DNA from: Fibrobacteria bacterium
GTDB taxonomy: Bacteria > Fibrobacterota > Fibrobacteria > UBA11236 > JADFYW01
DNA: 64,000 nt
Assembly: GCA_050294405.1 (NCBI GenBank)
Contig: JBNKOC010000012.1
Coordinates: 552,091-616,090, forward strand
Reading direction: 5' to 3'
The notes under the pieces were generated by a model. It saw only the letters and a list, made by a program, of their open reading frames with translations. It was not told where the DNA came from and did not search any database. This document shows positions 18,603 to 47,116 of this stretch, one piece after another. Position 1 is the first letter of the stretch. Each line of letters starts with the position of its first letter. The position numbers and the translations under genes were made by a program.

Positions 18603-18740
18603 TTCCATATTTGTTGTTATTTTGTTAAATTATGTCTTTTATTGTTAAAATTAAGTCCATTTCTCTTGCTAATTTGCATAGGGACTGGCAATTTATTTAT
18701 AAAATCAACGATTTTTGTGAAAAAAAGGCTTTATAAAACT

Positions 18741-18756
18741 TGGCATGAACATTGAT
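18741..18756 (+). promoter_or_regulatory. Weak candidate sigma-54 promoter (TGGCAT-N5-TTGAT) about 115 nt upstream of glnB
   Basis: The -24 GG element is good and the -12 element lacks the conserved GC. Its position between a sigma-54 activator gene and glnB is suggestive only. Confidence 0.2.
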
Positions 18757-18821
18757 GTAATAAATACTATCAGTTTTTTTAACACAAAAAATTGAAATAT
18801 GAATAATTTTGTACCACTTAA

Positions 18822-19211
<390 letters not shown>

Positions 19212-30629: not shown

Positions 30630-31597
30630 TTATGAAAAGATACATACTACATAGTTCCCTAATAAGCCTTGTGCTTTTATTTTCCTACGGGATAACCCCG
30701 GCATTTTCCCAGGATTTTGCCTCGCGTTCTTATGCGGAATTCGGCGCGGAATATTTAAAACTGCCACGCCATGCGGGGACAGCCAGTCTTGCCAACGCCA
30801 GCGCCGCCTGGGAAGAAAACCTGCTGGGCCTTCAATACAATCCGGGGCTTATTGGTTACAATAGCCAACATCATGTAAACCTAAGCTATACCTTTTTAAC
30901 CCTGGACAGGCTTCATTACAGTTTGGAATATGTAAGCCCTAAATATTACGGTCAGAATTTTGGGGTTTCTATTACCAGCTTTGGCGTAAAAGATATTGAG
31001 GAAAGAGACGATACCGGCCAATTAAACGGCCATTTTGATGATACGGAAATTGCGGCTGATTTTCTGGCTGGGGGACAGCTCAAAGGCTGGTTTAGTTATG
31101 GAATAGCTTTACGATATATACATCAGCAATTGGGCGAATTTAATGAGTCTGGAGCTAAAGGTTTTGGCATGGATATAGGTGTGCATTACAAGCCAATGGA
31201 AAAAATAGGAATAGGGGCGAGTTTGCAAAATTTAGGTTCTTATTTGTGGTGGGAAACCGGACGCGAGGATCAAGTGGTGCCCATATTCAGGCTTGGAGTA
31301 AATGGAAATATTGTGGACTCGGTGCTCAAGGCGGAAATAGACATTGTCAAACCCTATTCTCAACCCATTGAATCTAACATTGGAGTGGAGGGAAAAATAT
31401 TAAGGGTAATAGCCGTTCGCGTTGGAATTGTAAATGCGCTAACCTATGATGCGGATGGCGCTGTATATATGGATCCAGAATTTTTTCTGGGAGTGGGGTT
31501 GTCCCACAAATTCTTTGGGTTTGAATATGCGGCCATGAAACCGGGTTCGGAACTGGGAATGGGGCATAAATTTTCGTTGCAGGTCAATTTTAATTAA
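30626..31597 (+). CDS. Outer-membrane beta-barrel protein, possibly PorP/SprF-family T9SS-associated
   Basis: Signal peptide MIMKRYILHSSLISLVLLFSYGITPAFSQ. About 320 aa with alternating amphipathic strands, ending ...FSLQVNFN. Start ATG overlaps the upstream stop (ATGA). Family assignment rests on size, barrel character and position upstream of giant surface-protein genes. Confidence 0.35.
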   Translation: MIMKRYILHSSLISLVLLFSYGITPAFSQDFASRSYAEFGAEYLKLPRHAGTASLANASAAWEENLLGLQYNPGLIGYNSQHHVNLSYTFLTLDRLHYSLEYVSPKYYGQNFGVSITSFGVKDIEERDDTGQLNGHFDDTEIAADFLAGGQLKGWFSYGIALRYIHQQLGEFNESGAKGFGMDIGVHYKPMEKIGIGASLQNLGSYLWWETGREDQVVPIFRLGVNGNIVDSVLKAEIDIVKPYSQPIESNIGVEGKILRVIAVRVGIVNALTYDADGAVYMDPEFFLGVGLSHKFFGFEYAAMKPGSELGMGHKFSLQVNFN

Positions 31598-31632: not shown

Positions 31633-33990
31633 ATGCTGTTAAATAAAATATCCACATTGTTTTTGACCGTCGTCTTTGGCGCAGTATGTTATGGGGATTG
31701 GACTCAAACTGCCAGAGTGGTGGGATATAATCCTACTAAGGCGGATGTGGACATCTCCTCGGCAATGGAATGGGCGAAAAGCTTGAATGCTTCCGTGGTG
31801 GTCATTAGGCAAACTGCAGTGAGTGAATTTGATTGGCTGGATAAGCGAAATAAGGGTGACTCTCTTGCCCTTGACTTATTAGATCGCGTCATTAAAACCT
31901 GCCACCGAAATGGCTTAAGGGCTGTGGTGGATTTAAGCGTTTTAGAATTGAGAAGTTCCAATGGAGATGCAGATGAGGATGGCAAATTGGATGTTGGCGC
32001 AACAACCCTCTTGTCCACCCATTCCAGCTGGATTCAGGAAGACCTTCAGGGTAACAAGGCCGTTTTTTATGGGAAAATAAACCCTGAATCCAAAAAAGGA
32101 GATGAAACAGTTTGGGCTAATATCCACAGTTCCAATTTTAAAACCAAATTGCTTGCTTTAGTTAAAGCCGTAAGCTCAATCAATCCAGATGGTATCTTAT
32201 TTTCCAATGTTAGTTATCCTGTGAGAGAGGGGTGGGAGAATAAGTGGGCTAGTTTTGACAGCTATTCTGTAACGAATTTTAATAGCACCCTTCCCACTCA
32301 ATCTCAATTAGGCGATGTTCATTCCGCTGCTTTTACAAAGTGGGCTTCCTGGCGCATGAACAAATTATCCCAATTTTCAACGGAATTGAATTCCGCTGTG
32401 AAAAATGAAAATCCAGATGTCAAAACATTTATGCTGATTAAAAACGCCATCTCTCACGAAACATTAGTCCGCGGTTATGACTTTGATAAGCTCACTAAAA
32501 TTTTTGACGGCTTTGTGTATGATATAGACTTTTTGGGTGATGCGGTTTCCCGAAACAGTTATGAATGGATGATGTATTTTGCCTCAATTAAAGGGGCAAA
32601 CGAACTGGATGGGGAAAAGCCAAGCTGGGTAATTGATAGAACTAATACCTCTTCCTCCCTTACTGTATCTAAGGATATGAACAAGTTTGGGGACGCAGTT
32701 GCCACAGGGATGTATACTTCTTTGCAAGCTGGCATGAATGTGTGGATAACAGGGGGCAACAGAAAATACAGTGCCGCCACAAATGTAACCAAAATGGCTG
32801 AAATTTTTTCCTGGGTTAAAGAAAACCAAAATTGGCTTTATGGAGAAAGAAAAGTAGCCCAGTCTGTGGGGGTATATTTTTCTCAATCCAGTTTGCTGTA
32901 TCGCACAGGAAATAAATGGCAGGGGCATTTAGCCTCCTTTTATGGAACCCTAATGATGTTACACGAATTGCATATTCCCACAACCATAATCAGCACTGGA
33001 AATTTGAGTTTAGTAGACAAAGAGGAAGTGGAAGGTATAATACTTCCGCAGGTGGACTGCGCCTCTACAGTGGAAATTGATTCTTTAAGGGAGTATTACG
33101 AAAAAAGCAATCTCATTGTGTATTTTAGCGGCAGCGATGATAACCATTGCACGGAAAAAGGTGTATCCGCAGATTTTAGCTGGGATGATCAGCTATTGGA
33201 GGTAATGCAGAGAGGCGGGATTAATAAAGGCGAGACCTTTTTTAATAATGTAATGATGGATGGTAATGGGAATTTATTAAACGAAAATTACCCCAATTCT
33301 GTAGCCGCTGATATAAAAACCCAATTTTCAACGGATTTAAATTTTGCAGCCCAAATTGGATACGCACCCTTTGAAATGCCCTCTACCACTGCGGTTCGAG
33401 CCGTGAAAACAGATGAAGCGTTCTTTTATCATCTGGTTAATTTTGGAGGGCTGGATAATGGTAATATTGCCCGCAGTATCGAAGAAGAAGTGAATATTTA
33501 TCGAAATGGGGAAGAGTTGGAATCGGGAGCCATCGAAATGAACGGCGGGAGTTTGGAAGTTATCAGTTATTACTCCGATTTGAATTCAGAACAAACTCTT
33601 AACTTGGTAGAAAACTCCATGGGTAGCTCTGCCATTATCAGAGCGGGTGCTTTACCTGATTTAGAGGAAGATGTTGTATCCAATAAATTTATGGCTGCAA
33701 ACAGGAAAAAGCCGTCTTTCAACCTTCCAAAAAAATTATTGGTTCAAACAAAACTTATAAAGATTCATTATCAAAATCCCGGCCAGGAAATTGAAACTAT
33801 GGATTTCCAGGTATATGATATACATGGAAGGAATATTAAACAAATTTCCCTGGAAAGAGGGCGAAATGGCTTTAGTGCTAATTGGGATTTGGAAAGCCAA
33901 CCTGGAAATTATTTTCAGCCTGGAATGTACGCTTACAGGCTAGTTGGAAATGGAAAAGCCATAAAAATTGGGCAAATGGTGGTGCGTTAA
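31633..33990 (+). CDS. Secreted 785-aa protein, N-terminal glycoside-hydrolase-like (TIM-barrel-like) region, T9SS-type C-terminal sorting domain
   Basis: Signal peptide MLLNKISTLFLTVVFGAVCYG. The C-terminus ...FQVYDIHGRNIKQISL...GMYAYRLVGNGKAIKIGQMVVR is CTD-like. The catalytic-domain call is weak. Confidence 0.4.
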   Translation: MLLNKISTLFLTVVFGAVCYGDWTQTARVVGYNPTKADVDISSAMEWAKSLNASVVVIRQTAVSEFDWLDKRNKGDSLALDLLDRVIKTCHRNGLRAVVDLSVLELRSSNGDADEDGKLDVGATTLLSTHSSWIQEDLQGNKAVFYGKINPESKKGDETVWANIHSSNFKTKLLALVKAVSSINPDGILFSNVSYPVREGWENKWASFDSYSVTNFNSTLPTQSQLGDVHSAAFTKWASWRMNKLSQFSTELNSAVKNENPDVKTFMLIKNAISHETLVRGYDFDKLTKIFDGFVYDIDFLGDAVSRNSYEWMMYFASIKGANELDGEKPSWVIDRTNTSSSLTVSKDMNKFGDAVATGMYTSLQAGMNVWITGGNRKYSAATNVTKMAEIFSWVKENQNWLYGERKVAQSVGVYFSQSSLLYRTGNKWQGHLASFYGTLMMLHELHIPTTIISTGNLSLVDKEEVEGIILPQVDCASTVEIDSLREYYEKSNLIVYFSGSDDNHCTEKGVSADFSWDDQLLEVMQRGGINKGETFFNNVMMDGNGNLLNENYPNSVAADIKTQFSTDLNFAAQIGYAPFEMPSTTAVRAVKTDEAFFYHLVNFGGLDNGNIARSIEEEVNIYRNGEELESGAIEMNGGSLEVISYYSDLNSEQTLNLVENSMGSSAIIRAGALPDLEEDVVSNKFMAANRKKPSFNLPKKLLVQTKLIKIHYQNPGQEIETMDFQVYDIHGRNIKQISLERGRNGFSANWDLESQPGNYFQPGMYAYRLVGNGKAIKIGQMVVR

Positions 33991-33991
33991 T

Positions 33992-36900
33992 ATGTTCAAA
34001 AAAATATTGTTAACATTGCTGCTAATTTCATTGTCACAAGTGGCAGCATATTTTGTGGAATTAAACAGTATTGAAGACGCTGAAATGAGGGATGGAAGTC
34101 CTACGCTAAATTTTGGCGGGGCTCAAAATGTCCATTTTGGCACTAACGGTGGAGTGATATACAGGGGGCTAATAAAAATTAACTATGAAGACAGTATTCC
34201 TGACGGGGCTGTGGTGGATAGCGCTAAGTTATATATGTATATACAGGCAATAAATAGTGCACCCCAAAATGTTAGTATTTATCAGGTGCTGGTGGATTGG
34301 AATGCTGGGTCAAAAAACGGAGCCTATTTGGCGGGAGCTGTGAGCTGGGACTCGGCCAAAACTGGAATTACAGCTTGGAATGCAGCAGGAGCAAGCGGGT
34401 CGGGTTCAGATTATGTGGCAACCCCCATTACAAGCTATGCCTTTGCCAACTCTGGAGCATATGATTCTGTTTCCATTGAGGATGCCTTTAATTCCTGGAT
34501 ACAAGGTTCCCCAAACTATGGCATATTATTAACAAATGACGATGAAACTTGCGGCGGAGGAGCAAATTGCCGGATTCGCACCAGAGCAGAGGAACACAGT
34601 GATTCCAGTTATGTACGTATTTGGTACCAAATCCCCCCTCAATTAACCGGGCTAAGCGGAGGCGCGGAAGCCGGGGCCACCCAAAGCGATTCCAGTACAG
34701 TGACTATTTCCTATGAAATATATGATCCAGATGACGCCACAAATACAGTATCGGCTCAATATTGCTTAACTTCCAATGACTGTTCTGCGGCAGGAGCTGG
34801 CTGGACGGCTATGGCCAATACCACCGGAGATTTAGGGACCGTGTCCTCCACATCATCCTCCAGCGACAGGTTTATATACTGGGATGTGGAAACCCAACTG
34901 GGGTCCAGCGTTGATGATACTTATCGCGTGAGACTTATTGCTGTGGATGACTCGAGCAGTGTGGATACTCTTGAATCTGCCGATTTTATCGTAGACACTC
35001 AGGCTCCCACGAGTTTGGCTGGATTTTCCATGGATTCTGTCTATGAATCTTCAGCTGATGTCAGTTGGAGCACCCCGGCTGCGGATAACCACTTTAGCCA
35101 TTATGAAATATGGTTTGCGGAGGTGAAAGCCAATGTAGAGGCCAGAAACGCCTCTGCCGTGGAATGGGACCATACCGACGATGCCAACTTAGCCAATGCG
35201 GCAACTACATCCACATTGGTTCAGCTATTATCTTTCAGCACTAAATACTTTTTTAAAATTTGGGCTATCGACTCCGCAGGAAATGAAATATCTCTTCCCA
35301 CAGATAGTGGTACTACTCAGGCCTCAGATGTTCCTCTTGTATCTGGTTACGATCCTGAAACCAATGTAAGCGGAGTTATGGTCAGTTCTGATTCCGTAAA
35401 AATTCAATACGAAGTTCTCGACTTAGATGACTCTGTGGTTACGGTAACAGTAGAGACCAAACTGGCAAGCCAGGGGAGTTACGATAATTGGGCTACAGTG
35501 GATAGTTATATGTCAGGAGATACGGGCACTGTGGTGCAGTCTACCACCACGGACAGGTTAATTATCTGGGACATTGCTGCCCAACATGGAACCTCAGTTA
35601 ACGAAACAGCAACGGTAAGAGTTATTGCGGTGGATAGCAATGGGAATGCGGATACCAGTACTTCAGCTAGCTTTACCGTAGATACCCAAGCTCCCACAGC
35701 TCCAAGCGCTTTAACATCAACAGCAACTACTTCTTCTTCCGTTTCCTTAAGTTGGACTGCGGGTTCGGATGCAAATTTCAATCATTATGAAATTTGGTAT
35801 GGTACAGACCAGACAGAAGTGGAAAATAGAAATATTGCGGCGGAATGGGATGACTCGCCCCAGGATGCGAATTTGGCCACGGCTTCAACCACCAGTACTA
35901 CTATAACAGGGCTTCAGGCAAGTGTCACCTACTATTTCCATATATGGGCAGTGGATGATTATGGGAATGAAGCGGATTATGGGACAACATATTCCGTGGC
36001 AACTGCTGCAACTACGGATTTACAAATAACAGATATTGAAGATAATGTAATGCGCAGTAACAATACATCGGCAAATTGCGGCTCTGAACCAATCCGGGGT
36101 GGCCCCACCGCTGGAAGAAATGGAGGTTGGGGAGGCACTAAAAGAAGCTTAGTGAAAATTAACATGTCAGAAGTGCCCGCAGGGGCTACTATCGTATCAG
36201 CAACCTTTACCGCCCGATGTAATGCAGTAGGCGATGTTTCCTCTGTCACTATTGAGGCCTTTCCCTTATTGCAGGCCTTTGTGGAAGGAACAGATGGTTG
36301 CGGGACACAAGCGGGTTCCAGTTGCTGGAATGACTATGGGGCCGGTTCCTGGAGCACACCGGGGTTAGCTTCAGGCGTAGATTATGAGGCTACAGCGGTT
36401 TCATCTCAATCCGTAGCCGATGTGGGCACATACTCTTGGGATTTGACCAGCGTGGTTCAGGAATGGGTAAATGGAACCAGAACAAACAATGGGTTGGTAT
36501 TTATTGAATCTACGGAATCCGGTACTACCGGAAAGTTTTTTGATGCGGCAGAGGGAGCTATCCCACCATTCCTGGATGTACAATATACCTTGGGTTATCC
36601 TGAAGTAACCGGTTTGTCGGATGCCGCCCTTATTGGGGCGACCATGACCGGGGATCCGGATTCGGCCACTATAAGTTTTGAAGTATCAGATCCAAATGAT
36701 GTTAATGTAACTATTACTCTGCAATATAAACTTGCAGTTGGGGGAAGTTGGGCTGATGCTACTGAGGTGCTGGGCTATAGCGGTTCACAATCTGCCGCGG
36801 ATGGCGATGCCGACAGGAGCATTCGTTGGGCGGCTCGTTCTGAGCTTGGTAATGTGGATAACAATTATATGGTTCGAATTATAGCAACTGATGGCACCCT

Positions 36901-39682
36901 AAGTGACACTACTGAAAGCGCCAGCTTTGCAATAGATACAAAAGCGCCTGTGGGTTTGGCCAATTTAAATGTGGGAGCTTATGGAGTTGTGCATGCTAAC
37001 CTAAGTTGGACTTCTGTTACTAGTGAAACCAATTTTAGCCACTACGAAATATGGTATGGTTCCGATTTAACAGATGTTCAAAACAGGACAGGAAGTGCGG
37101 ATGAATGGGATAACAATGATGATAATGGACTGCTAACCGTTGGAACCACAACTACCTCAATCACGGGGTTATCGGCATCCACTTTGTATTATTTTAAGAT
37201 ATGGGCTATTGATGACATAGGCAATGAGGCTACGGTTACTTTTGACAGCGTTACGACCCAGGCCAATGCCGCCCCTACAGTAACAGGCTTAAGCGCGGCA
37301 GCTAAAGTTGGGGCAACACAAAGCGATACAGATTTAGTTAGCATCAGTTTTGAAATTGATGATACGGATGGCGATACGGCCGATTGCTCTTTAGAATATT
37401 TTGAAGTGGGAACAGGTCCTTGGACCAGTGCCAGCAATGTAACTGGAAACACCGGGGGAGTTAAGTTTACCAATGGGCAGGATTTATCCATGAGTTGGGA
37501 TGTTTTGACTGCGCTTTCGGTTCCCACTAGCGATGCAACCTATAAAATTAGGGTTCTATGCACAGATACTACTAGCCTTTCGGATACCACTGAATCGGCT
37601 AACTTCACTATTGATTTAGTGGACCCCACTGGAATGTCTGGTATTTCGGTGGGAACCATAGGGGCCACAACGGCAGGACTTTCCTGGAATTCGGTATCCA
37701 CTGAAAATCACTTCTCTCATTATGAAATATGGTACGGGACGGTTCAGAACGATGTAAATAGTAGAAGTGGAACCGCTCTGGAATGGGATGGCGATAATGA
37801 TGCCAGCCTTAGAACCATGACTACCGATACGACAACCATAACAGCTCTTTCTCCTCTTTCCACTTATTACTTTAAAATATGGAGTCAGGATTCTGCTGGA
37901 AATGAACAAACATTAGGCGTCGTGAGCGGTTCCACAGGAGGAACTAACGCGCCTATAGTTACCGGCCCTTCAGATGTTCCCAATATTTCTGCCAGCCAGA
38001 GTTCCACAACTCAGGTTACCATGGTTTATGAAGTGGATGATGCTGATGATGCCAGTGTAACGGTTACCGCTCAATATTGCGTGAGTACGAATGATTGTTC
38101 TAAAGCATCCAGCGACTGGACTGCTATGACTAATACCAGTGGAGATATTGGAGCATCAATTGCCACACATGCGACGAATGACAAAACTATTACCTGGACT
38201 GCAGCCACTCAATTGGGAAGTGTAGAAGGCACATATTATGTAAGGGTGATTGTGGATGATTTGGATGGGGCCACAGATAATGATACGGCTTCCAGTGCTT
38301 CTTTTACACTGGACACTCAGGCGCCGAGCTCCCCCGCCTCCCTTGCCACAGTGGAGGCTTTGGGAAGTACGATGGAACTCAGCTGGACTGCTGTAAGCGA
38401 TGCAAATTTTAATCACTATGAGATATGGTATGGAACCACTTCCGGCCAGGCAAGTGGTCGCACCGGTACGGAATGGGATAATAGTGATGATGGAAATCTG
38501 GCAAATAGCGCTACCACCTCTACCATAATTACAGGATTGACTTCGGGAACAGATTATTGGTGGCATATATGGGCTGTGGACGATATTGGAAATGAGACTA
38601 GCGATGGAACTTTAAACCAGGCAACTCCAGCTATAAAAACCCCTCAATTTGCTCTTGATGCAGACGATAACATTGGCGATGTTAAGGGAGCGGTAATAGC
38701 CGGAAGCGGAATGTATGTTTCAACGGCTAACATTGGCGGTAGTGAAGATAATATTACCAAGCGCAATGCTTCAACAGGTGCTTTTATGTGGCAATTTTCC
38801 ACCTCCGCATATGGATCTCCAAAACCGAGCACTTTTACCTATAGCAGCAGCGCCGGGAAATACATAATACATTCTGCTGCCGGCACCCGTATTATTGGAA
38901 TCCAGGACAATGGATCCAGCAAAACAGATTTGTTTGTGGTGAATTTGGGGGGAACAGCGGGAACTCCATATGGGGACCCGGGAGATAACCAAATTGCAGT
39001 AGTGGCGGGAGGATCCTTATATCTTCGAAACTTCACTACTGGGGCAGCTATTTGGGGCCCTATGGGAAGTAACTTGAGTTCAGATGGAGAACTTATTTTT
39101 GACAACTGGACCAACAATGTTATTTATGCGCCTGGGTCCAATGGGACTGTTTATGCCTTTAATATTTCTGATGGAAGCTCTTTTGGAAGTTATTCCACAG
39201 GGGCTGGAAGTGTTAGCCTTGCACTTTGGCAAATGAATGGTTTCATATACGCGGCTCCAAGTGATAATAGCCTGCATAAGATTAATGATGCCACCATGAC
39301 TGGAGCGGGTGGAAACTGGCCAGTCAGCTTAAGTGGAAATAATACTGGCGGACTTTGGTATGATTGGAATACCGACGTGATTTATGTTACCACTACTGCC
39401 GGAATTCAGGCCTTTGACTCGGATGGGAATGCTTATGGTACAGCTCGTTCTTTGACTAATATTAATTCCGCACCTCTGGTGCATAACAATGTGGTGTATT
39501 TTGGCCGCGATGGCGGCGAATACTACGCTGTCGATCCATCCAATTTAAATACGGATAGAACAGATTGGCCTTATACTGCCGCGGATGGTAATGCCAGGTC
39601 GGCTCCAGCGGCGGATTGGAGTAATGGCAGGGTTATATTTGGGACAGATAATGAAAATATAGACTCTTTTACTCAAGAATAA
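33992..39682 (+). CDS. Giant cell-surface protein (about 1900 aa): DNRLRE-like domains, 5+ Ig-like/FN3-like modules, C-terminal PQQ-like beta-propeller
   Basis: Signal peptide MFKKILLTLLLISLSQVAA (ATG at 33992; the ORF track starts at 33968). Five repeats of ...F(T/A)(I/V)DTQAPT...(L/V)SW(T/S)...(H/N)FSHYEIWYG... modules. N-terminal and mid-protein MRDGSPTLNFGG / VMRSNNTSANCG segments resemble DNRLRE domains. The last about 350 aa are PQQ-like blades (...VYAFNISDGS..., ...VYFGRDGGEYYAVDPSN...). Confidence 0.7.
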   Translation: MFKKILLTLLLISLSQVAAYFVELNSIEDAEMRDGSPTLNFGGAQNVHFGTNGGVIYRGLIKINYEDSIPDGAVVDSAKLYMYIQAINSAPQNVSIYQVLVDWNAGSKNGAYLAGAVSWDSAKTGITAWNAAGASGSGSDYVATPITSYAFANSGAYDSVSIEDAFNSWIQGSPNYGILLTNDDETCGGGANCRIRTRAEEHSDSSYVRIWYQIPPQLTGLSGGAEAGATQSDSSTVTISYEIYDPDDATNTVSAQYCLTSNDCSAAGAGWTAMANTTGDLGTVSSTSSSSDRFIYWDVETQLGSSVDDTYRVRLIAVDDSSSVDTLESADFIVDTQAPTSLAGFSMDSVYESSADVSWSTPAADNHFSHYEIWFAEVKANVEARNASAVEWDHTDDANLANAATTSTLVQLLSFSTKYFFKIWAIDSAGNEISLPTDSGTTQASDVPLVSGYDPETNVSGVMVSSDSVKIQYEVLDLDDSVVTVTVETKLASQGSYDNWATVDSYMSGDTGTVVQSTTTDRLIIWDIAAQHGTSVNETATVRVIAVDSNGNADTSTSASFTVDTQAPTAPSALTSTATTSSSVSLSWTAGSDANFNHYEIWYGTDQTEVENRNIAAEWDDSPQDANLATASTTSTTITGLQASVTYYFHIWAVDDYGNEADYGTTYSVATAATTDLQITDIEDNVMRSNNTSANCGSEPIRGGPTAGRNGGWGGTKRSLVKINMSEVPAGATIVSATFTARCNAVGDVSSVTIEAFPLLQAFVEGTDGCGTQAGSSCWNDYGAGSWSTPGLASGVDYEATAVSSQSVADVGTYSWDLTSVVQEWVNGTRTNNGLVFIESTESGTTGKFFDAAEGAIPPFLDVQYTLGYPEVTGLSDAALIGATMTGDPDSATISFEVSDPNDVNVTITLQYKLAVGGSWADATEVLGYSGSQSAADGDADRSIRWAARSELGNVDNNYMVRIIATDGTLSDTTESASFAIDTKAPVGLANLNVGAYGVVHANLSWTSVTSETNFSHYEIWYGSDLTDVQNRTGSADEWDNNDDNGLLTVGTTTTSITGLSASTLYYFKIWAIDDIGNEATVTFDSVTTQANAAPTVTGLSAAAKVGATQSDTDLVSISFEIDDTDGDTADCSLEYFEVGTGPWTSASNVTGNTGGVKFTNGQDLSMSWDVLTALSVPTSDATYKIRVLCTDTTSLSDTTESANFTIDLVDPTGMSGISVGTIGATTAGLSWNSVSTENHFSHYEIWYGTVQNDVNSRSGTALEWDGDNDASLRTMTTDTTTITALSPLSTYYFKIWSQDSAGNEQTLGVVSGSTGGTNAPIVTGPSDVPNISASQSSTTQVTMVYEVDDADDASVTVTAQYCVSTNDCSKASSDWTAMTNTSGDIGASIATHATNDKTITWTAATQLGSVEGTYYVRVIVDDLDGATDNDTASSASFTLDTQAPSSPASLATVEALGSTMELSWTAVSDANFNHYEIWYGTTSGQASGRTGTEWDNSDDGNLANSATTSTIITGLTSGTDYWWHIWAVDDIGNETSDGTLNQATPAIKTPQFALDADDNIGDVKGAVIAGSGMYVSTANIGGSEDNITKRNASTGAFMWQFSTSAYGSPKPSTFTYSSSAGKYIIHSAAGTRIIGIQDNGSSKTDLFVVNLGGTAGTPYGDPGDNQIAVVAGGSLYLRNFTTGAAIWGPMGSNLSSDGELIFDNWTNNVIYAPGSNGTVYAFNISDGSSFGSYSTGAGSVSLALWQMNGFIYAAPSDNSLHKINDATMTGAGGNWPVSLSGNNTGGLWYDWNTDVIYVTTTAGIQAFDSDGNAYGTARSLTNINSAPLVHNNVVYFGRDGGEYYAVDPSNLNTDRTDWPYTAADGNARSAPAADWSNGRVIFGTDNENIDSFTQE

Positions 39683-39733
39683 GAGAAACAAAACTCTGTT
39701 TTGAAAGCATAAAAAATTATAAATTGAAGTAAT

Positions 39734-39889
39734 ATGAAAGATTTGGGTAAGCATAAAAAAAAGCTAAAATACGAAGCACCTAAGGTAGAATCCGAAGCTA
39801 TATACGAGCAAAGTGCCTTGGCTTGCGGTAAATGCTTGACCACCAATACCCATCAAGCAGCCTGCTCCAAATCTCCCACAACCTCTTAA
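39734..39889 (+). CDS. Unannotated 50-aa small ORF, Cys-containing and RiPP-precursor-like: MKDLGKHKKKLKYEAPKVESEAIYEQSALACGKCLTTNTHQAACSKSPTTS
   Basis: Read by hand from the intergenic region between the two giant genes. Lys-rich N-terminal half and a C-terminal half with CxxC...C and Thr/Ser, ending in Ser. There is no strong SD. Confidence 0.3.
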   Translation: MKDLGKHKKKLKYEAPKVESEAIYEQSALACGKCLTTNTHQAACSKSPTTS

Positions 39890-40014: not shown

Positions 40015-41169
40015 TTGATTCGATTTATGCACATTATGGGAGTTATCGGGCTGCTAATGGGAGGCTGTTCTCTTTTTGAATCTGATTCTAAGGCAAAAAA
40101 AACTGAGCTAAAGTTTGAAATGCACTCCATTTTTGTGGATAGTATGGCAGGTTATGCCCGTGCAACTCTTGTGGATATGGACAAAGACGGAGACTTGGAT
40201 TTTGTAACTGGATCGGTAGTAAGAACATACTGGTTTGAATATGTATCTGATTCTGTCTGGAACCCACATTTAATTACTACTCAGTCCAATTCAGATGTGG
40301 GTGGAGTTTCTCTTGATATTGACGGCGATGGCTGGGTAGATCACACAGCAGGTTCTTTATGGTTTAAAAACCCGGGTACGAGCCCCATGGAAAATTTTGA
40401 AAGCTTCAATAGCGGGTGTTTATACCGTACCCATGATATGGAGCAGGGCGACATGGATGGGGATGGGATTGTAGATGTTATTTCTCTGTCTGATCAGGGA
40501 TTAGGGGTTAGTTGGTGTAAATTTTCCAATGGCCCAGAAGAGCCCTGGCAAGTTTATGAAATACTCCCCGTGGATAACAACCGGCAGGAGCACAGCGGCA
40601 TGAATGTGGGGGATATTGATGGTGATGGAGATTTGGATGTGAGCATGGTGACGCGCTGGGTGGAAAATGTGGATGGAAAAGGAGAAAGTTGGCAACCCCA
40701 CGATTTAGAAGGCATGGGAATCAAGGGTATATATGGCTACGGCGGGGAAACAGAAGTCGCGGATTTGGACGGGGACGGTGATAACGATATTGTGGTTACT
40801 GAAGCGGACATTTCAAATGCCAGGGTGGGAGTTTTTGAGAATTTAAATGGGAAGGGCACACAGTGGAACTTAACCATTTTAAAGGACAGCACGGATATTC
40901 AAAATTTTCACTCCTTAAAAATTAGGGATTTTAATAATGATGGCAGGCTTGATATTTTTACCTGCAATCAGAAGCCGGAATCCGGTTATCCCTATTATAT
41001 CTGGTTAAATCTGGGCGGACTAGAATGGGAAGAAAAAATAATTTTCTCAGGAGTAGAGTGCCATGATGCCGTTGCAGGGGACGTGGATGGTGATGGGGAC
41101 ATGGATATAGTATCTAACGGATATGGTTTTCCTGAACACATTTTTTTGGAAAACAAGCTAATTGACTAG
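40015..41169 (+). CDS. FG-GAP/VCBS-repeat lipoprotein (7-blade integrin-alpha-like beta-propeller)
   Basis: Lipobox-like LLMGGCS. Seven Ca-binding-like repeats D-x-D-x-D-G-x-x-D (DMDKDGDLDFV, DIDGDGWVDH, DMDGDGIVDV, DIDGDGDLDV, DLDGDGDNDIV, DFNNDGRLDIF, DVDGDGDMDIV). Confidence 0.65.
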   Translation: MIRFMHIMGVIGLLMGGCSLFESDSKAKKTELKFEMHSIFVDSMAGYARATLVDMDKDGDLDFVTGSVVRTYWFEYVSDSVWNPHLITTQSNSDVGGVSLDIDGDGWVDHTAGSLWFKNPGTSPMENFESFNSGCLYRTHDMEQGDMDGDGIVDVISLSDQGLGVSWCKFSNGPEEPWQVYEILPVDNNRQEHSGMNVGDIDGDGDLDVSMVTRWVENVDGKGESWQPHDLEGMGIKGIYGYGGETEVADLDGDGDNDIVVTEADISNARVGVFENLNGKGTQWNLTILKDSTDIQNFHSLKIRDFNNDGRLDIFTCNQKPESGYPYYIWLNLGGLEWEEKIIFSGVECHDAVAGDVDGDGDMDIVSNGYGFPEHIFLENKLID

Positions 41170-41443
41170 TTAAAATTAGCACTCTGTCTTTCCAAAGCTG
41201 CATTAGCTATCTCCTTGTAAAGGAAATTTAACTTCCCAAATATTTGGAAAAAAACCTGCATTAGCGCCTTTAGAATTCTTTAATGAAGGTTCTTTTGGGT
41301 GGTATAATTATTAAGGGCAAAAAATGGAGGATTAGCCAAAAATTAAGGAAAACTGCTACAGAATTTTGAATTAAACTGAAAGTGGTTTTATTTCAAAATT
41401 GGGGCAATTTTATCATTTTCCAATACTTATGATTTGACATTTG

Positions 41444-44400
41444 ATGCAAGGCTTGTATAAACATTGCAACAGACTTTTCAGCCTATGGATTATCCTGGGC
41501 TGTGGTTTAATGGCCTTGCCTGCGTTTGCCAAATACAAACAATTTATTCTTGGAGATGATTCTCATTTAAACTCGGCAAACTCCGGGGTCAATTATGGTT
41601 CCACCCAATGGCTTTATGTAGGTAAAATTGGTACCGGAGCTAATGCAGATAGAGGTCCCTATAGGCCGGCCATAAAATTCCCAATTGATGATTCGCTTCC
41701 AAGCAATGCCATTATTGACAGTGCGGATATCTATCTATACATGATAGCCCAAAATGGGGCCGCAGATAATATTGCTGTCTATGTGATTCTTCAAAGTTGG
41801 TTGGAAGGAAGTGCGGACGGAACAGCTCAGGACGGATCTGTAACATGGAATTCCAGGCAACACAATGTAAGTACCTGGAATTCAGGAGGGGCTAGCACTA
41901 CAGGAACAGACCGAAATGCCGCAGCAGAAGCTAGCGTTTCTGTAGGCACCATCAATAGTTGGTATACATGGAGAGTGACTTCTGCGGTGCAGGATTGGGT
42001 GGATGGAACCCAAGCTAATAACGGACTTTTGTTTATTGGAACAGAAAACTCCAATCTAAGAAAACAGTTTAATTCCCTTGAAAGCGGTAATGCGGAGCTT
42101 CCCTATTTTGATGTATGGTATCGAGTGTATCCTGTGATTACCGGATTAAGCGGCGCCGCTTCTGCATCTGCAAGCCAGGACGACTCCAGCTATGTATCTG
42201 TATATTACGAGGTGGGAGATAATGATGATTCCTGGGTGGTTGTCACTATGGAATATCAGGTAGGTGGTGCGGGAGGGTGGACCGCCTTAACCAATACCAC
42301 AGGAGACATAGATACTGTGGATGCTAATTCCCAAAATGCAGATAGAACAGTGTTGTGGGATGCCAAGACCCAATTAGGTTCCAGCATTGATGATACATAT
42401 GCCATTCGAATTGTGGCTTCCGATTCGGAAGGAAATGCGGACACAGTAGTAACCTCCTCTTTTTTAATTGATACGGAAGATCCAACTACTTTAGCGAACT
42501 TGGCAGTGGTTGATTCTGGCGTGGCCAGTGCGGATTTGCAGTGGACCGCTGCTGTGGAAAGCCATTTTAGCCATTACGAAATTTGGTATGGCACAGATAA
42601 GGATGCTGTGAATGACAGAAGTGTGAGCGCCTTTCGCTGGAGCACAGATGAAGACGCTACGATGTCCACTATTTCTACCACCAGTGCAACGGTGTTGTTA
42701 TTGGAATATTTGACCAAATATTATTTTAAAATGTGGGCCCTGGATAGCGCTGGCAATGAATACGCTTCAAACATTGACAGTATGACCACTCTTACAACTA
42801 CGGCGCCCCTTGTAACAGGCTGGGATCCTTCCTCCAAGCCTAATGTTTTGCAATATAATACAGATAGTGCGTATGTGGGCTATGAAATTTGGGATGCGGA
42901 CGATTCCACTTTGCAGGTGGAATTCGAAATGCGCTGGAAAGATGAAGCTAGTTGGCGTAACTGGACGACCATGTCAGCCTATGTAAATGGCGACACTGGG
43001 TATGTCGCGGTGGATATTGTTAAGGATCAAACAATATATTGGGATGTAAGGGGACAATTTGGCTCCATAGATTCCACAGCGTTTGTGAGAATTATTGTAA
43101 CGGACTCGGCAAACAATAAGGATACGGCAACATCGGTAGAGTTTATAATTGATACAGAGGCTCCGACGTTCTCACCAACTTTATCTTCCCCTTCTAAAAC
43201 GGCATCCACCGTGGATTTACAGTGGTCAGCTACAGCAAGCGATACTCATTTTAATCATTATGAAATATGGTATGGAACCAGCCAGGCTAATGTTCAAAGC
43301 CGAAGCAATGCCGCGGAGTGGGATGAGGATAATGACGCTGCGCTTACCACTGCGTCCACCACCAGCACCTCCATTTACGGTCTTCTAGCTAATACCACCT
43401 ATTATTTTAAAATTTGGGCTGTGGATGACTATGGGAACGAAACTACAGTTGTTGATATTAATGTAACTACGGACGCCACCGCCACCACCCAGCTAACAGA
43501 TGTATCTGACAACATGATGGAAGATGATAATCCGAATTTTAACTACGGAGGAGATGCCACCCACGGAGGAGCCACCGCAGGAAAAGTGGGCTCTGGCGGG
43601 GGCGGGTACTTGCAACGCACCCTTGTTAAAATAAATAATATTAGCGATGTTCCCGCCGGGGCAACCATAGTGTCAGCTACCTTTAATGCCTATGCGGCAA
43701 CTGTGGGATCCACAAATGGCTATAATATTGGCATGTACCGGGTGCTTCGGGATTGGAACGAAGGGACCGCAACCGGAGTGGATCAGGCAAATCAAAGCAA
43801 CTGGAATGACTATGCTGACGAAAATAACTGGACTACAGCCGGGGCAAGCAGTACTGGAAATGATATAACAACTGTAATCACCAGCACCACAGTTAGTACT
43901 GTAGGTTGGTATTCTTGGGATATAACTGCGGATTTTGCAGCCTGGCACAATGGCACTAACCCAAATTACGGGATGTTGTTTATGTCCGCTTCCGAGGGGA
44001 CAAATGATTCCTATAAAAATTTTAATTCCGCAGAGGGGGCGAATGTGCCCTATGTGGATGTTACCTATGTTATGGAACCCCCTCAGGTTTCCGGACTTAG
44101 CGATACCACTCTTATTACAGCCTATCAAAACAATGCAGATACTGCTATTGTTAAATATGAATTATCCGATCCAAATGATTTAACAGCCACCGTTAGCTTG
44201 CAGTACAAACTAAGCGGTGGAAGTTGGACCAGTACCTCCAATACATCTGGAGATATTGGTGCTGGAATTCCTGCTGACAATGAATTTGCTGACAGAACCA
44301 TTTACTGGGATGTCCGAACAAATTTGGGAATCGGAGTAGACGGAACCTATAAGTTGAGAGTCATTGCCAATGATGGAACATTGGCTGACACTACTGAAAG

Positions 44401-47116
44401 TAATTGGATAGGCCTTGACACAAAAGACCCGCTTGGGTTGGCTAATTTCGTAGTGGCGGATTCTTTTAGTTATTCCATGGATTTTAATTGGACGGCAGTT
44501 ACAACAGAAGGACATTTCAGCCATTATGAAATTTGGTATGGTTCCAATAAAACAGACGTGTCGAATCGTTCCGGAACAGCTCAGGAATGGGATGGTGATA
44601 ATAATAATGGAATGAACACAGCCTCTACCAATACTATGATTATTACGGGACTTAGCTCCTCCACTAAATACTATTTTAAAATTTGGGTAGTGGATTCCAT
44701 GACCAACGAAGCCACCACAGGGATGGATAGCGCTACAACTTTAGACGATCCTATTCCAACAGTTACCGGGTGGTCTCAGGCAAGTGTGGTGAATGCCAGT
44801 CAAATTAATCCTGATACAGTACAAGTGGGATATCAGGTGGTGGATATTGATGACTCTCTTGCGGTATGCGGATTGCAGTACACAGCTACATCTCCAATAT
44901 CCTGGGCGAATGCGACCACAGTTACAGGTGATGTGGATACGGTGGTTACAGGCGTTTCTTATAATGATACCATATATTGGAACGCATTAACGGATTTAGG
45001 CGCTGGAATTGATGCCAGCTACTATGTTCGCGTCCATTGCGTGGACGATACCAGTTTTGCGGATACCACCCAATCCGCCAGCTTTTCCATTGATTTTGTA
45101 TCTCCTGTGGGTTTAGCTTCTCTAACCGCAGGGACAACGGATGCAACAAGTTCAGGTTTGTCCTGGACATCGGTGTCTACGGAATCCCACTTTAGCCATT
45201 ATGAAATATGGTATGGGACCAACCAGTCGGATGTGCAAAATAGAACAGGCACGGCCCTGGAGTGGACTGTAACAGAGGACGCTACTCTGGCCGCTCAGGC
45301 AACAGATACTACTACTGTTACCTCTTTGGTGCCAAATTCCACTTACTATTTTAAAATTTGGGCTGTGGATTCTGCGGGAAATGAAACCACAGTAGCTGAT
45401 GTTAATGTAGCAACATCGGCAACCAATGATCCGGTTGTCACAGGTCCCTCCAATGCACCAAAAATTGCCGCTACCCAATACTCCACCAGCGATGTTAGGA
45501 TTCGCTACGAGGTGGATGATGCCGATGACGCCAGTGTGACGGTTTCTGCGGAATATTTTTTATATGCGGGATCGGGCTGGACTTCTTTAACAAATACATC
45601 GGGGGATATTGGCTCTGTAACAACATCTCCCACAAATCAAGACACCATAATATGGACCGCGGCCACTCAATTGGGAAGCATTGATTCGGTTTATCAAATA
45701 AGAGTGATAGCTACAGATGGAGGTGTTTTAGATACTTTGGCCAGCGATACCTTTGCCATTGATACCAAAGCCCCATCCGGTTTGGCTTCTTTTTCAGCCA
45801 CAGATACAACGGGGGTTAGTATTAGCTTGGGATGGACTGCAGCCACAGATAGAAACTTCAGCAACTATGAAATTTGGTACGGGACAAATCAAACTGATGT
45901 GCAAAACAGAACGGGAACTGCAACAGAATGGGATGGTGCTGATGATGGGAACCTAAATTCAGCCACTACCTCGGCTACTACAATAACAAGTCTTTCCATC
46001 GGAACTTCCTATTATTTTAAGATTTGGGCTTTGGATAACATTGGCAACGAGAGCACATTGGCCGATATTAATGTAAGTACCAAATCACAAGTGGCAGCAA
46101 ATTGGAGTAAAACTTCCATTGGAGAGGTTAAGGGAGGGGCGGTAGGTTTATCCAGGTTATATGTTACTGTGGGAAGTCCCAACTTTAGGCTAATTAGCTA
46201 TAATTTGTCCACAGGTGCCCAAAGTTGGTTTTTCTCAACGGTGGCCTATGGCGCGGCCAATCGACCTAGCTACATATATTCCGGTGGGGTGTACAAAATA
46301 TTGCTATCGGCTGGTAATTTTTTAATTGGGCGGCAGGATAACGTAACCTCATCTTCGGCGCTATTCACTACTATAGATTTTGGCACCACGGTGGGGGTTC
46401 CTTATGCGAGCCCGGATGATTCCACTTTTTATGTTACTTATACAAATGCCATTACCAGAAGAATGATTTCCGGGGGAAGCGTTGTGTCGGGATGGCCCCA
46501 GACGCTATCAAATGTGAGTACTAATGCCGACCCGGTGGTGGAGAATGATGCTATTTATGTGGCTACAACAAGTGGCATGGTGTATAGCTATGATGTAGAT
46601 GGAACACAAGGGCCTTCTTTCAATGCTGGGGCTAATGTATCTCAACCCATGGTGGCTGGAGATGGCATACTGTACATTGCCCCCAACAGCGCTAATTTAT
46701 ATGCGGTGAATGCCTCTACCATGAGTGCAGTGTGGACACCATCAGCGGTAAGCCTGGATGCTTCTAATACGGGAGCCCCCTACGTGGATAAAGATTTAGC
46801 GGCCATATATGTGGCCGTGGGAAATAAAGTTCAAAAAATTAACAATAATGGAGCCACCGCCAGTGTGGAGTGGACTTTTGATGCGGGTGACAATATCAGC
46901 TCAAGCCCGGTGGTCAAAAATGGAGTGGTATATTTTGGTAGGGACAATGGCAGATACTATGCCATAAATGATGCGGCTACACCCACAGCTGTAACCAATT
47001 GGCCCTATGCAGATATTAGCGGTGACGCGGATATGGGACCATGGATTGATGTCACCAACAACCAGGTGATTTTTGGCACAAGCGGCCAGAACCTCGATGC
47101 CTTTAATTTGGAATAG
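41444..47116 (+). CDS. Giant cell-surface protein, paralogue of 33992..39682 (DNRLRE-like + Ig/FN3-like modules + C-terminal PQQ-like propeller)
   Basis: Signal peptide ...LFSLWIILGCGLMALPAFA. Same module order and signature strings as the other giant (SHYEIWYGT..., YYFKIWA.D..GNE). The C-terminus ...NQVIFGTSGQNLDAFNLE parallels ...GRVIFGTDNENIDSFTQE. Confidence 0.7.
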   Translation: MQGLYKHCNRLFSLWIILGCGLMALPAFAKYKQFILGDDSHLNSANSGVNYGSTQWLYVGKIGTGANADRGPYRPAIKFPIDDSLPSNAIIDSADIYLYMIAQNGAADNIAVYVILQSWLEGSADGTAQDGSVTWNSRQHNVSTWNSGGASTTGTDRNAAAEASVSVGTINSWYTWRVTSAVQDWVDGTQANNGLLFIGTENSNLRKQFNSLESGNAELPYFDVWYRVYPVITGLSGAASASASQDDSSYVSVYYEVGDNDDSWVVVTMEYQVGGAGGWTALTNTTGDIDTVDANSQNADRTVLWDAKTQLGSSIDDTYAIRIVASDSEGNADTVVTSSFLIDTEDPTTLANLAVVDSGVASADLQWTAAVESHFSHYEIWYGTDKDAVNDRSVSAFRWSTDEDATMSTISTTSATVLLLEYLTKYYFKMWALDSAGNEYASNIDSMTTLTTTAPLVTGWDPSSKPNVLQYNTDSAYVGYEIWDADDSTLQVEFEMRWKDEASWRNWTTMSAYVNGDTGYVAVDIVKDQTIYWDVRGQFGSIDSTAFVRIIVTDSANNKDTATSVEFIIDTEAPTFSPTLSSPSKTASTVDLQWSATASDTHFNHYEIWYGTSQANVQSRSNAAEWDEDNDAALTTASTTSTSIYGLLANTTYYFKIWAVDDYGNETTVVDINVTTDATATTQLTDVSDNMMEDDNPNFNYGGDATHGGATAGKVGSGGGGYLQRTLVKINNISDVPAGATIVSATFNAYAATVGSTNGYNIGMYRVLRDWNEGTATGVDQANQSNWNDYADENNWTTAGASSTGNDITTVITSTTVSTVGWYSWDITADFAAWHNGTNPNYGMLFMSASEGTNDSYKNFNSAEGANVPYVDVTYVMEPPQVSGLSDTTLITAYQNNADTAIVKYELSDPNDLTATVSLQYKLSGGSWTSTSNTSGDIGAGIPADNEFADRTIYWDVRTNLGIGVDGTYKLRVIANDGTLADTTESNWIGLDTKDPLGLANFVVADSFSYSMDFNWTAVTTEGHFSHYEIWYGSNKTDVSNRSGTAQEWDGDNNNGMNTASTNTMIITGLSSSTKYYFKIWVVDSMTNEATTGMDSATTLDDPIPTVTGWSQASVVNASQINPDTVQVGYQVVDIDDSLAVCGLQYTATSPISWANATTVTGDVDTVVTGVSYNDTIYWNALTDLGAGIDASYYVRVHCVDDTSFADTTQSASFSIDFVSPVGLASLTAGTTDATSSGLSWTSVSTESHFSHYEIWYGTNQSDVQNRTGTALEWTVTEDATLAAQATDTTTVTSLVPNSTYYFKIWAVDSAGNETTVADVNVATSATNDPVVTGPSNAPKIAATQYSTSDVRIRYEVDDADDASVTVSAEYFLYAGSGWTSLTNTSGDIGSVTTSPTNQDTIIWTAATQLGSIDSVYQIRVIATDGGVLDTLASDTFAIDTKAPSGLASFSATDTTGVSISLGWTAATDRNFSNYEIWYGTNQTDVQNRTGTATEWDGADDGNLNSATTSATTITSLSIGTSYYFKIWALDNIGNESTLADINVSTKSQVAANWSKTSIGEVKGGAVGLSRLYVTVGSPNFRLISYNLSTGAQSWFFSTVAYGAANRPSYIYSGGVYKILLSAGNFLIGRQDNVTSSSALFTTIDFGTTVGVPYASPDDSTFYVTYTNAITRRMISGGSVVSGWPQTLSNVSTNADPVVENDAIYVATTSGMVYSYDVDGTQGPSFNAGANVSQPMVAGDGILYIAPNSANLYAVNASTMSAVWTPSAVSLDASNTGAPYVDKDLAAIYVAVGNKVQKINNNGATASVEWTFDAGDNISSSPVVKNGVVYFGRDNGRYYAINDAATPTAVTNWPYADISGDADMGPWIDVTNNQVIFGTSGQNLDAFNLE

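Follow-up and report, generated by a model that had tools for sequence, protein, structure and literature searches.

A small three-cysteine peptide gene from a Fibrobacteria bacterium as the probable precursor of a RiPP pathway with a discrete recognition element, radical-SAM enzymes, a kinase and a signal-peptidase-like protein

A stretch of 64,000 nucleotides from a Fibrobacteria bacterium (GenBank assembly GCA_050294405.1, contig JBNKOC010000012.1, positions 552,091 to 616,090 of the forward strand; hereafter, the window) holds a small open reading frame (ORF) on the forward strand that very probably encodes the precursor of a peptide that is made on the ribosome and modified after translation (RiPP). 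The ORF starts with an ATG at 39734, ends with a TAA at 39887-39889 and is translated as MKDLGKHKKKLKYEAPKVESEAIYEQSALACGKCLTTNTHQAACSKSPTTS, a peptide of 51 residues. A first-pass annotation of the window had placed the ORF correctly in position and strand and had described its product as 50 residues long, although the string it gave has 51 letters. The spacer in which the ORF lies measures 332 bp, as had been stated, and runs from the end of a giant surface-protein gene at 39682 to the start of the next ORF at 40015. The peptide had been described as lying between two giant genes, which is accurate for the first, its immediate neighbor, and not for the second (41441-47116), since a gene for a 384-aa FG-GAP lipoprotein (40015-41169) directly follows the peptide ORF on its 3' side and intervenes. 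The CxxC...C arrangement, the richness in Thr and Ser and the terminal Ser that had been pointed out are all present in the translation, and the ORF is indeed missing from the gene track: no gene with this product was called in the source assembly, and no match to the exact peptide is on record. The gene and its parts are as follows.

39734-39889, forward strand: probable precursor peptide gene, 51 aa plus stop, identified by ORF calling, homologs, purifying selection and family architecture
39734-39811, forward strand: predicted leader, residues 1-26, delimited by column frequencies and, at its boundary, by homology with the leaders of the linear polyphosphorylated peptides (LPPs) of Bacillota (PMC13381572)
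39812-39886, forward strand: predicted core, SALACGKCLTTNTHQAACSKSPTTS, from the family alignment
39711-39725, forward strand: A/T-rich block, AAAAAATTATAAATT, 9-23 nt upstream of the ATG, with like blocks in the two closest homologous loci

The leader has a Lys-rich, hydrophilic N-terminus and no signal peptide. Its residues Y13-E-A-P16 (39770-39781) constitute a candidate motif for binding by a RiPP recognition element (RRE), and Y24-E25-Q26 falls, in the alignment, on F-3/E-2/T-1, the residues that determine cleavage in LPP leaders; the AxA rule predicts an alternative boundary after A28-L29-A30 (39823). The core carries three Cys residues, the family-invariant Cys31 (39824-39826), Cys34 (39833-39835) and Cys44 (39863-39865), the last of which stands seven residues from the end, and closes with Ser51 (39884-39886), a candidate phosphorylation site. 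It contains no Asp, Glu or Trp. No Shine-Dalgarno sequence was found upstream of the ATG, and the A/T-rich block may be a promoter or translation signal, as weakly suggested by the comparison of three upstream sequences.

The size of the ORF alone is within what chance would produce, given that 19 ORFs of 20 aa or more, antisense ones of 44-69 aa among them, occur in the same 800 bp. Evidence that the ORF is a gene comes from its homologs. Two close homologs emerged from a search over 5.8 billion proteins, P0001 and P0002, which are encoded on contigs L002 and L001. Across the ungapped last 41 codons of these three closest sequences, 16-23 codons differ synonymously and 5-7 non-synonymously, and the differences at codon positions 1/2/3 number 4/3/20, 6/5/29 and 3/4/26 in the three pairs. 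Synonymous sites are saturated (pS 0.69-1.0) while pN amounts to 0.07-0.12, and the one unsaturated pair for which dS could be estimated yields a dN/dS of 0.04. In the window and in the two closest loci the ORF starts 38-52 nt past a giant gene whose product ends in ...GTDNENxDxFTQE, and the downstream gene varies. The peptide ORF is a real gene under strong purifying selection, and the check on conservation of the reading frame that the first-pass annotation had called for thus came out in its favor. An antisense ORF of 57-79 aa overlies the peptide gene in the window (39673-39846, reverse strand) and in contigs L001 (1626-1865, reverse strand) and L003 (2684-2866, reverse strand); because the codon-position pattern puts selection on the forward frame, this antisense ORF is considered a by-product.

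In order to delimit the family, a profile of the three sequences was searched exhaustively with HMMER against 1.84 billion cluster representatives, returning 66 hits at E ≤ 1e-3. Peptides of 45-88 aa account for 65 of these hits, which were taken as genuine representatives at 50% identity, and the remaining hit (P0003, 1783 aa, with 26 'core' matches) was discarded as a spurious, low-complexity repeat. A profile of the 65 members retrieved at least 430 clusters at 90% identity, the named ones being designated 'hypothetical protein' and lacking any Pfam domain. Scans of the 65 members against Pfam and NCBIfam produced no meaningful match and no curated model, and scans of the window peptide against the same two libraries matched no model. 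The named sources are metagenome-assembled genomes (MAGs) of Elusimicrobia, Fibrobacteria, Chitinivibrionales/Chitinispirillia and Armatimonadota, and the range of the family is also given as MAGs of Fibrobacterota, Elusimicrobia, Armatimonadota, Planctomycetota and 'Deltaproteobacteria'. Within the window, the family hidden Markov model (HMM) matches this one ORF only and tblastn finds no paralogs of the peptide.

The members of the family share the consensus (Lys-rich N-terminus)-YxxPx[IV]x[ST]Ex[IV]FE[TQ]xALACGKC-x[TS]GPxxQxAC-xxL[PK]xx-S, with a Cys spacing of CGKC-x9-12-C-x6-S and with leader columns reading YxxPx[IV]x[ST]Ex[IV]FE[TQR]. A [YFW]xxP motif is present in 70/70 sequences and its first residue precedes the first Cys by 18 residues in 68/70. 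The YxxP position is occupied by Tyr in 137/139 and by Pro in 139/139, the first Cys is found in 137/139, the Gly that follows it in 127/139 and the Lys after that Gly (CGK) in 133/139. Three Cys in total, and a last Cys exactly seven residues from the end, are each seen in 220/242, and a C-terminal Ser is seen in 237/242 unique sequences (98%). The window peptide fits all of these anchors. Conservation of the core is far above that of usual antibiotic RiPPs. The core LTTNTHQAACSKSPTTS of the window peptide and of its two closest relatives departs from the consensus x[TS]GPxxQxACxxL[PK]xxS at Gly-Pro and at Leu, and the lineage of the window possesses two radical S-adenosylmethionine (rSAM) genes versus one in most. 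Contig L003 (CAZRWX010000314.1) is titled 'uncultured Bifidobacteriales' and encodes a giant fn3/propeller protein of the Fibrobacterota type together with a peptide nearly identical to that of a Fibrobacterota single-amplified genome (L004); it is probably mis-binned.

The enzymes that had been proposed to process the peptide are encoded at 24.9-28.7 kb of the window by a cassette in which the kinase and peptidase genes are divergent from the two rSAM genes and the PqqD gene.

24877-25977, reverse strand: radical SAM/SPASM enzyme A, 366 aa, no fused RRE (Pfam and NCBIfam scans)
25986-26276, reverse strand: discrete RRE of the PqqD family, 96 aa (Pfam PqqD, 3e-15), predicted to bind YxxP leaders
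26289-27380, reverse strand: radical SAM/SPASM enzyme B, 363 aa, no fused RRE (Pfam and NCBIfam scans)
27446-28264, forward strand: P-loop kinase of the HprK/PEPCK fold, 272 aa (Pfam PF27840 'ScmC', a weak match for the window protein)
28281-28703, forward strand: soluble, S24/S26-like protein resembling signal peptidases of the ER/archaeal type, 140 aa (TIGR02228 sigpep_I_arch, 3.6e-8), predicted leader peptidase

Coupling between the peptide family and such cassettes was assessed in loci picked by peptide sequence alone, comprising three from species-representative genomes and 80 of 166 confirmed metagenome hits; the metagenome co-occurrence sample corresponds to the ALACGKC subset of the family. 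Of these loci, 27 have 3 kb or more of sequence on each side of the peptide gene; a cassette gene is found within 10 kb in 23 of the 27 (85%) and within 2 kb in 22, and the individual counts are 22 for PqqD, 19 for rSAM, 17 for the peptidase and 14 for the kinase. When neighbors were clustered by BLAST in an unbiased manner, the top four clusters were rSAM (42 loci), signal peptidase-like (36), PqqD (28) and kinase (25, the kinase being found in 25-28 loci). All 166 cassette genes located within 4 kb lie on the same strand as the peptide and none on the opposite one. The commonest order is kinase, RRE, peptide, peptidase and rSAM, with genes that abut or overlap. Database gene calls and Pfam annotation give the same picture in L087 and L088, and in L005 the 3' end of an rSAM/SPASM gene overlaps with a member that has the same leader and another core. 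The family is therefore genomically coupled to four enzyme types. Cys-containing peptides similar to that of the window do occur beside homologous rSAM/PqqD clusters, and the proposal that the ORF is a RiPP precursor and a substrate of the rSAM/PqqD/HprK cluster agrees with the location of the family inside or beside homologous cassettes in most loci and with the synteny of L087 and L004 described below.

Profiles of the cassette proteins point to the roles that these could play. A 15-member profile of the RRE matches PDB chains of the lasso B1 proteins TbiB1 (3.7e-14) and TfuB1 (1.3e-10), of LppB (9x8z_B, 4e-10) and of PbaB1 (9x90, 2e-8), and reaches PqqD at only 9e-5. The RRE family has an invariant Asn39 and a near-invariant Asp77, which align with N33 and D70 of LppB, whereas the WxxP-binding PbaB1 has Gly and Gln at these positions; in LppB, N33 and D70 keep the kink at the Pro of YxxP in place and form hydrogen bonds to the Tyr of the motif (PMC13381572). 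In the peptidase family, G25, M28, P30, H64 and D83 are invariant and Ser27 is present in about 90%, so that Ser27 (in GWSMWP), His64 (in VHRV) and Asp83 make up a candidate triad, and the best PDB matches of its profile are SEC11C and SEC11A at about 1e-7 (8e-8). The second-round peptidase HMM grew from 5 to 49 hits and was checked by BLAST clustering (36 loci), by the catalytic motif and by the SEC11 match. As judged from these matches, the peptidase is a small, soluble Ser-His-Asp signal peptidase of the ER/archaeal type. The Radical_SAM and SPASM domains of both rSAM proteins start near residue 35, which leaves no fused RRE.

In the window, the peptide gene lies 11.0 kb from the stop of the peptidase gene (28703), in agreement with the distance of about 11 kb reported by the first-pass annotation, and 12.4 kb from the nearer rSAM gene. 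The genes that lie between the cassette and the peptide gene, and those that follow it, are listed below.

28899-30629, forward strand: BamB/PQQ-like beta-propeller protein with a C-terminal domain of the type IX secretion system (T9SS), a conserved member of the string in Fibrobacterota-type loci
30599-31597, forward strand: outer-membrane protein of the PorV/PorQ family, directly preceding the peptide gene in L004, L006, L013 and L087
31633-39682, forward strand: two surface-protein genes, for a 785-aa protein with a T9SS tail and a 1904-aa protein with fn3 repeats and a C-terminal propeller (33968-39682), not in L087 or L004
40015-47116, forward strand: FG-GAP lipoprotein and second giant paralog (41441-47116), not in L087
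47318-48514, forward strand: tyrosyl-tRNA synthetase, the synteny anchor, directly following the peptide gene in L087 (66% identity)

The two giant proteins, with fn3 repeats and a C-terminal beta-propeller, are paralogs with 43% identity. In L087 and L004 the order is rSAM, PqqD and rSAM, and then, divergently, kinase, peptidase, BamB-like T9SS protein, PorV-like protein and peptide, followed in L087 by the tyrosyl-tRNA synthetase. Nine genes of L087 are the best matches of window genes, in the same order and at 38-66% identity. On this comparison, two segments appear as insertions, 31633-39682 separating the peptide gene from the PorV-like gene and 40015-47116 separating it from the tyrosyl-tRNA synthetase gene, which makes the peptide gene, by the same token, the ancestral last gene of the co-directional string on the kinase side. 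The distance of 11 kb between peptide and cassette would thus be due to the insertion of two blocks of surface-protein genes. Directly past the tyrosyl-tRNA synthetase gene, at 48523-49609 of the window and about 9 kb downstream of the three-Cys peptide, are genes for DsbB-like and DsbA/thioredoxin-like proteins.

The ORF at 39734-39889 is thus interpreted, with high confidence, as the precursor (A) peptide for a RiPP pathway that depends on an RRE and is run by the cassette at 24.9-28.7 kb. For the specific chemistry of this pathway, outlined here, the chances are about even. The discrete PqqD-type RRE (25986-26276) would bind the leader through Y13xxP16, as suggested by the fact that it carries the Asn/Asp pair of the LppB type. 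The two rSAM/SPASM enzymes would then modify the Cys-containing core of the RRE-held peptide, the likeliest products being thioether crosslinks from Cys31 and Cys44, with the possible involvement of Cys34; crosslinking of Cys is proposed because of the enzyme class and the conservation of the Cys residues. The absence of Asp, Glu and Trp from the window core excludes Cys-Asp/Glu links of the QhpD type and a tryptophylquinone cofactor. The kinase of the HprK/PEPCK fold would phosphorylate the hydroxyl of the C-terminal Ser51, which is suggested both by the 98% invariance of the terminal Ser and by the precedent of PadeK, ThcoK and PsmK. Finally, the RRE would present the leader to the soluble SipW/SEC11-type peptidase, as LppB does for LppS, with a cut most likely after Y24-E25-Q26 and alternatively after A28-L29-A30. 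A phosphopeptide with crosslinks, 21-25 residues long, would result.

Among known systems the closest is that of the LPPs of Bacillota, with the genes lppA/K/B/S/D/N (Popov et al., Nat Commun 2026;17:6633; PMC13381572), an analog with a signal-peptidase-type leader peptidase that the first-pass annotation had missed. LPP leaders read YxxPxVLxHQxIxFETxxS, and LppS cuts them after F-3/E-2/T-1 only when LppB presents the precursor; LppK polyphosphorylates Ser3 of the core, and the LPP family has been described as restricted to Bacillota (PMC13381572). Both systems have a discrete lasso-type RRE with an Asn/Asp pair for YxxP, beside which lies a soluble Ser-His-Asp signal peptidase of the archaeal/ER type (SipW/SEC11-like), the predicted leader peptidase. 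They also share an HprK-like kinase and a genomic tie to cell-surface loci. The leaders agree in part, reading YxxPxV...IFE[TQ] here against YxxPxVLxHQxIxFET in LPP: YxxPxV and FET recur, while the spacing from the Pro to FET is two residues shorter here and HQ is missing. The systems differ in their rSAM/SPASM enzymes, of which one or two are conserved in the present family and none in LPP. The core described here is conserved, of about 21-25 aa, with 2-3 Cys and a C-terminal Ser, whereas LPP cores are variable (in precursors of 35-200 aa) and carry a phospho-Ser3. The phyla are also distinct, Fibrobacterota, Elusimicrobia, Armatimonadota, Planctomycetota and 'Deltaproteobacteria' here versus Bacillota. 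No NTP transferase (LppN) or MsbA-like exporter (LppD) appears among the conserved neighbor clusters or among the annotated window genes at 12.7-52.8 kb. The peptide profile found no hit among PDB chains, the LppA leader chain included, probably because this chain is shorter than 20 residues.

Other systems resemble the cassette in part. In the paeninodin-type lasso peptides, the kinases PadeK, ThcoK and PsmK phosphorylate the C-terminal Ser on the linear precursor (PMC9266682), so the earlier statement that HprK-related kinases can act on the C-terminal Ser of a precursor is true for this class and is in keeping with the near-invariant terminal Ser of the family. The likeness consists of an HPr-kinase-like enzyme with a highly conserved C-terminal Ser and of a YxxP/WxxP leader bound by a discrete PqqD-like B1 protein. 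Neither a lasso macrolactam synthetase (C) nor a B2 cysteine protease was found among the conserved neighbors or among the Pfam/NCBIfam matches in the window cassette, which instead has a signal-peptidase-type leader peptidase and rSAM enzymes. Sacti- and ranthipeptide systems (AlbA, SkfB, StsB, CteB, PapB) likewise place an rSAM/SPASM gene beside a short Cys-containing precursor and depend on an RRE for recognition; the RRE found here, however, is discrete, lasso-type and unfused, and those systems are without the added kinase and signal-peptidase-type protease. The corresponding models are not reached (AlbA 88-101 bits versus 850, StsB 87-104 versus 625, SkfB 84 versus 300, PapB 46-89 versus 340). 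Of the first-pass assignment to a sacti/ranthi-type or other Cys-dependent RiPP, the precursor reading is supported and the sacti/ranthi-type chemistry is conjectural; no curated maturase model is matched at its cutoff.

Like the cassette, the SynChlorMet (ScmC/D/E/F), GeoRSP and HPr-rel-A systems of the NCBIfam/TIGRFAM models comprise a P-loop protein related to HprK, a homolog of PqqD and one or two rSAM/SPASM proteins resembling PqqE. Membership in these systems was rejected, as the curated equivalog cutoffs are far off in the window and in L031, L053, L058, L007 and L005, with scores of 14-30 bits versus 125 for ScmC, 26-36 versus 100 for ScmD and 90-112 versus 400 for ScmE; a match is seen only to the broader Pfam model PF27840 'ScmC'. 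To our knowledge, and going by the TIGRFAM descriptions, no precursor has been identified for the Scm cassette; the peptide family may be the long-missing precursor type for ScmC-family (SynChlorMet-like) cassettes. The maturation of the gamma subunit of quinohemoprotein amine dehydrogenase (QHNDH; QhpC/QhpD/QhpE) provides another parallel, with a leader-bearing small polypeptide, Cys thioethers made by an rSAM/SPASM enzyme, a serine protease and genes that lie with those of the partners (PMC7876137). It differs in that the peptide described here has no Trp for a quinone and, in the window core, no Asp or Glu, and in that the protease belongs to another class and a kinase is present. The searchable literature describes no system that combines an RRE, an HprK-like kinase, a signal peptidase and rSAM enzymes, and two RRE-mining surveys mention none.

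Several observations weigh against the assignment of the peptide to the cassette or against the chemistry proposed for it. Besides the distance between the two in the window, the loci of one sub-clade (L013, L019, L047, L077 and L089) have no cassette gene within 8-10 kb, and in two others (L062 and L068) the peptide (at about 9944-10144) is accompanied by the RRE and the peptidase alone, followed by CheB, with no kinase or rSAM gene within 10 kb. Cleavage of the LPP type would place Leu at core position 3 in 136/139 sequences, and in the single LPP characterized so far the kinase targets Ser3 and not a C-terminal Ser. In the window peptide itself, Thr-Asn takes the place of the Gly-Pro that most members have in the core, and Ser that of the Leu at +3 past the last Cys. 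The rSAM proteins find their top matches in models of the NirJ/AhbD/mycofactocin type and miss all curated peptide-maturase cutoffs, and a scan for consensus promoters and terminators, together with RNA folding of the downstream spacer, yielded nothing above background. The thioether crosslinks, the phosphorylation site, the cleavage site and the order of the steps are, moreover, all inferred. L062 and L068 are loci of the Armatimonadota type, and an RRE, a peptidase and a precursor may represent a minimal module, the remaining enzymes being accessory or having their genes elsewhere.

Four other readings of the peptide were weighed against these data. An origin by chance within an intergenic spacer might be argued from the chance ORFs of like length on the other strand and from the lack of a gene call in the source assembly, but a dN/dS of about 0.04 with saturated synonymous sites and at least 430 homologous clusters in several phyla refute it. 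The first-pass annotation had offered, as an alternative, a secreted or regulatory small peptide tied to the adhesin locus; such a peptide would stand free of the cassette, and the position of the peptide between surface-protein genes in the window, 11 kb from the cassette, and the variation of the downstream gene between relatives would suit it. It is strongly disfavored, to the point of retaining very little probability, by the lack of a signal peptide and the Lys-rich hydrophilic N-terminus, by the homology of the leader to RRE-bound leaders, by the presence of cassette genes near the peptide in 85% of the well-flanked loci and by the comparison with L087 and L004, in which the surface-protein genes appear as insertions into an ancestral string of cassette and peptide. 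What survives of this alternative is a recurrent link to beta-propeller surface proteins, which appears alongside the link to the cassette and does not replace it. A linear phosphopeptide of the LPP type, made by RRE, kinase and protease only, with rSAM enzymes that act elsewhere and Cys residues that serve as disulfides or metal ligands, would account for the match of the RRE/signal peptidase/kinase triad and of the leader motif to LPP, for L062 and L068, where RRE, peptidase and peptide occur with no rSAM gene within 10 kb, and for the DsbB/DsbA pair 9 kb downstream in the window. This reading is nevertheless quite improbable, since rSAM/SPASM is the most frequent single neighbor (42 loci), the rSAM gene abuts the peptide gene in L005 and L088 where there is no kinase, rSAM proteins without a fused RRE beside a discrete RRE form the usual peptide-maturase arrangement, and neither Cys31 nor the last Cys varies across the family.

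It is also conceivable, if rather unlikely, that the matured peptide, still processed by the cassette, is a dedicated partner (a small subunit, a ligand or a piece of a cofactor) of the neighboring beta-propeller surface proteins. In nine loci, including the window, no more than 400 nt separate a BamB/PQQ-like propeller gene from the peptide gene, and such a gene is found within 10 kb in 16/83; a propeller is the only recognizable partner in the cassette-less 'orphan' loci L047, L077 and L089 (Armatimonadota); and the peptide gene comes after a giant protein ending in a propeller in L001, L002, L003 and the window. PorV-like genes accompany the propeller genes in Fibrobacterota-type loci, and conservation of the core far beyond that of usual antibiotic RiPPs is also what a protein partner would lead one to expect. 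The beta subunit of QHNDH is a propeller. QhpD and QhpC set the precedent of a small, rSAM-crosslinked polypeptide working with protein partners (PMC7876137), and a partner relationship of the peptide with propeller proteins is hypothesized here by analogy. On the other side, the full cassette is present and a propeller neighbor mostly missing in the largest clade, which is of the Elusimicrobia type (e.g. L028-L048), a core without Trp allows no cofactor of the cysteine tryptophylquinone type and one without Asp or Glu, as in the window, no links of the QhpD type, and some of the adjacency may be incidental, given how common BamB-like repeat proteins are in these phyla.

Returning to the peptide as precursor for the cassette, the conserved core and the recurrent linkage to surface proteins suggest a role at the cell surface rather than that of a hypervariable antibiotic, a non-antibiotic function that would be unusual for a RiPP. 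We tentatively propose, at somewhat less than even odds, a widespread class of RiPPs outside Bacillota that combines recruitment of the LPP/lasso type with rSAM crosslinking of Cys and phosphorylation of a C-terminal Ser, the product being a component of the cell envelope, a ligand or a cofactor. What is new here is the fusion of LPP-like recruitment logic with radical-SAM chemistry, in phyla outside Bacillota: the logic of RRE, signal peptidase and HprK-like kinase, published in 2026 as confined to Bacillota, extends to other phyla and to a hybrid with radical-SAM enzymes. An orphan type of rSAM/PqqD/HprK-like cassette, previously without a recognized precursor, is thereby assigned a probable substrate. 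The family profile, YxxP-x14-CGKC...C-x6-S, finds more than 400 small genes that are unannotated or 'hypothetical' in Elusimicrobia, Fibrobacterota, Armatimonadota and other poorly studied phyla, and the source assembly illustrates that gene callers miss this peptide gene.

Two further features of the window may be noted. A GAF-domain sigma-54 activator and a P-II protein are encoded upstream of the cassette region, at 17013-19211, and have no evident link to the peptide system. The other feature abuts the gene of rSAM enzyme A.

24015-24839, reverse strand: class I methyltransferase with a hydrophobic N-terminus (library scans)

The methyltransferase was set aside as a member of the system, since its HMM gave one hit only and none in L004, L087 or other loci; its membership is doubtful, and it may be a lineage-specific tailoring enzyme or unrelated. 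Elsewhere, the Elusimicrobia locus L088 (8650-16231) presents PqqD, rSAM, peptide and peptidase-like genes followed directly by the gene for a 4459-aa protein, so that here, too, a giant protein neighbors the system. In the main clade (L028-L031, L045, L057 and related loci), the cassette is flanked by genes for prepilin-type (N_methyl) proteins with CarboxypepD_reg, for an Rrf2 regulator and for a family 2 glycosyltransferase (GT2), and an uncharacterized 465-aa protein with no Pfam match (representative L078:5481-6878) is kept in 13 loci.

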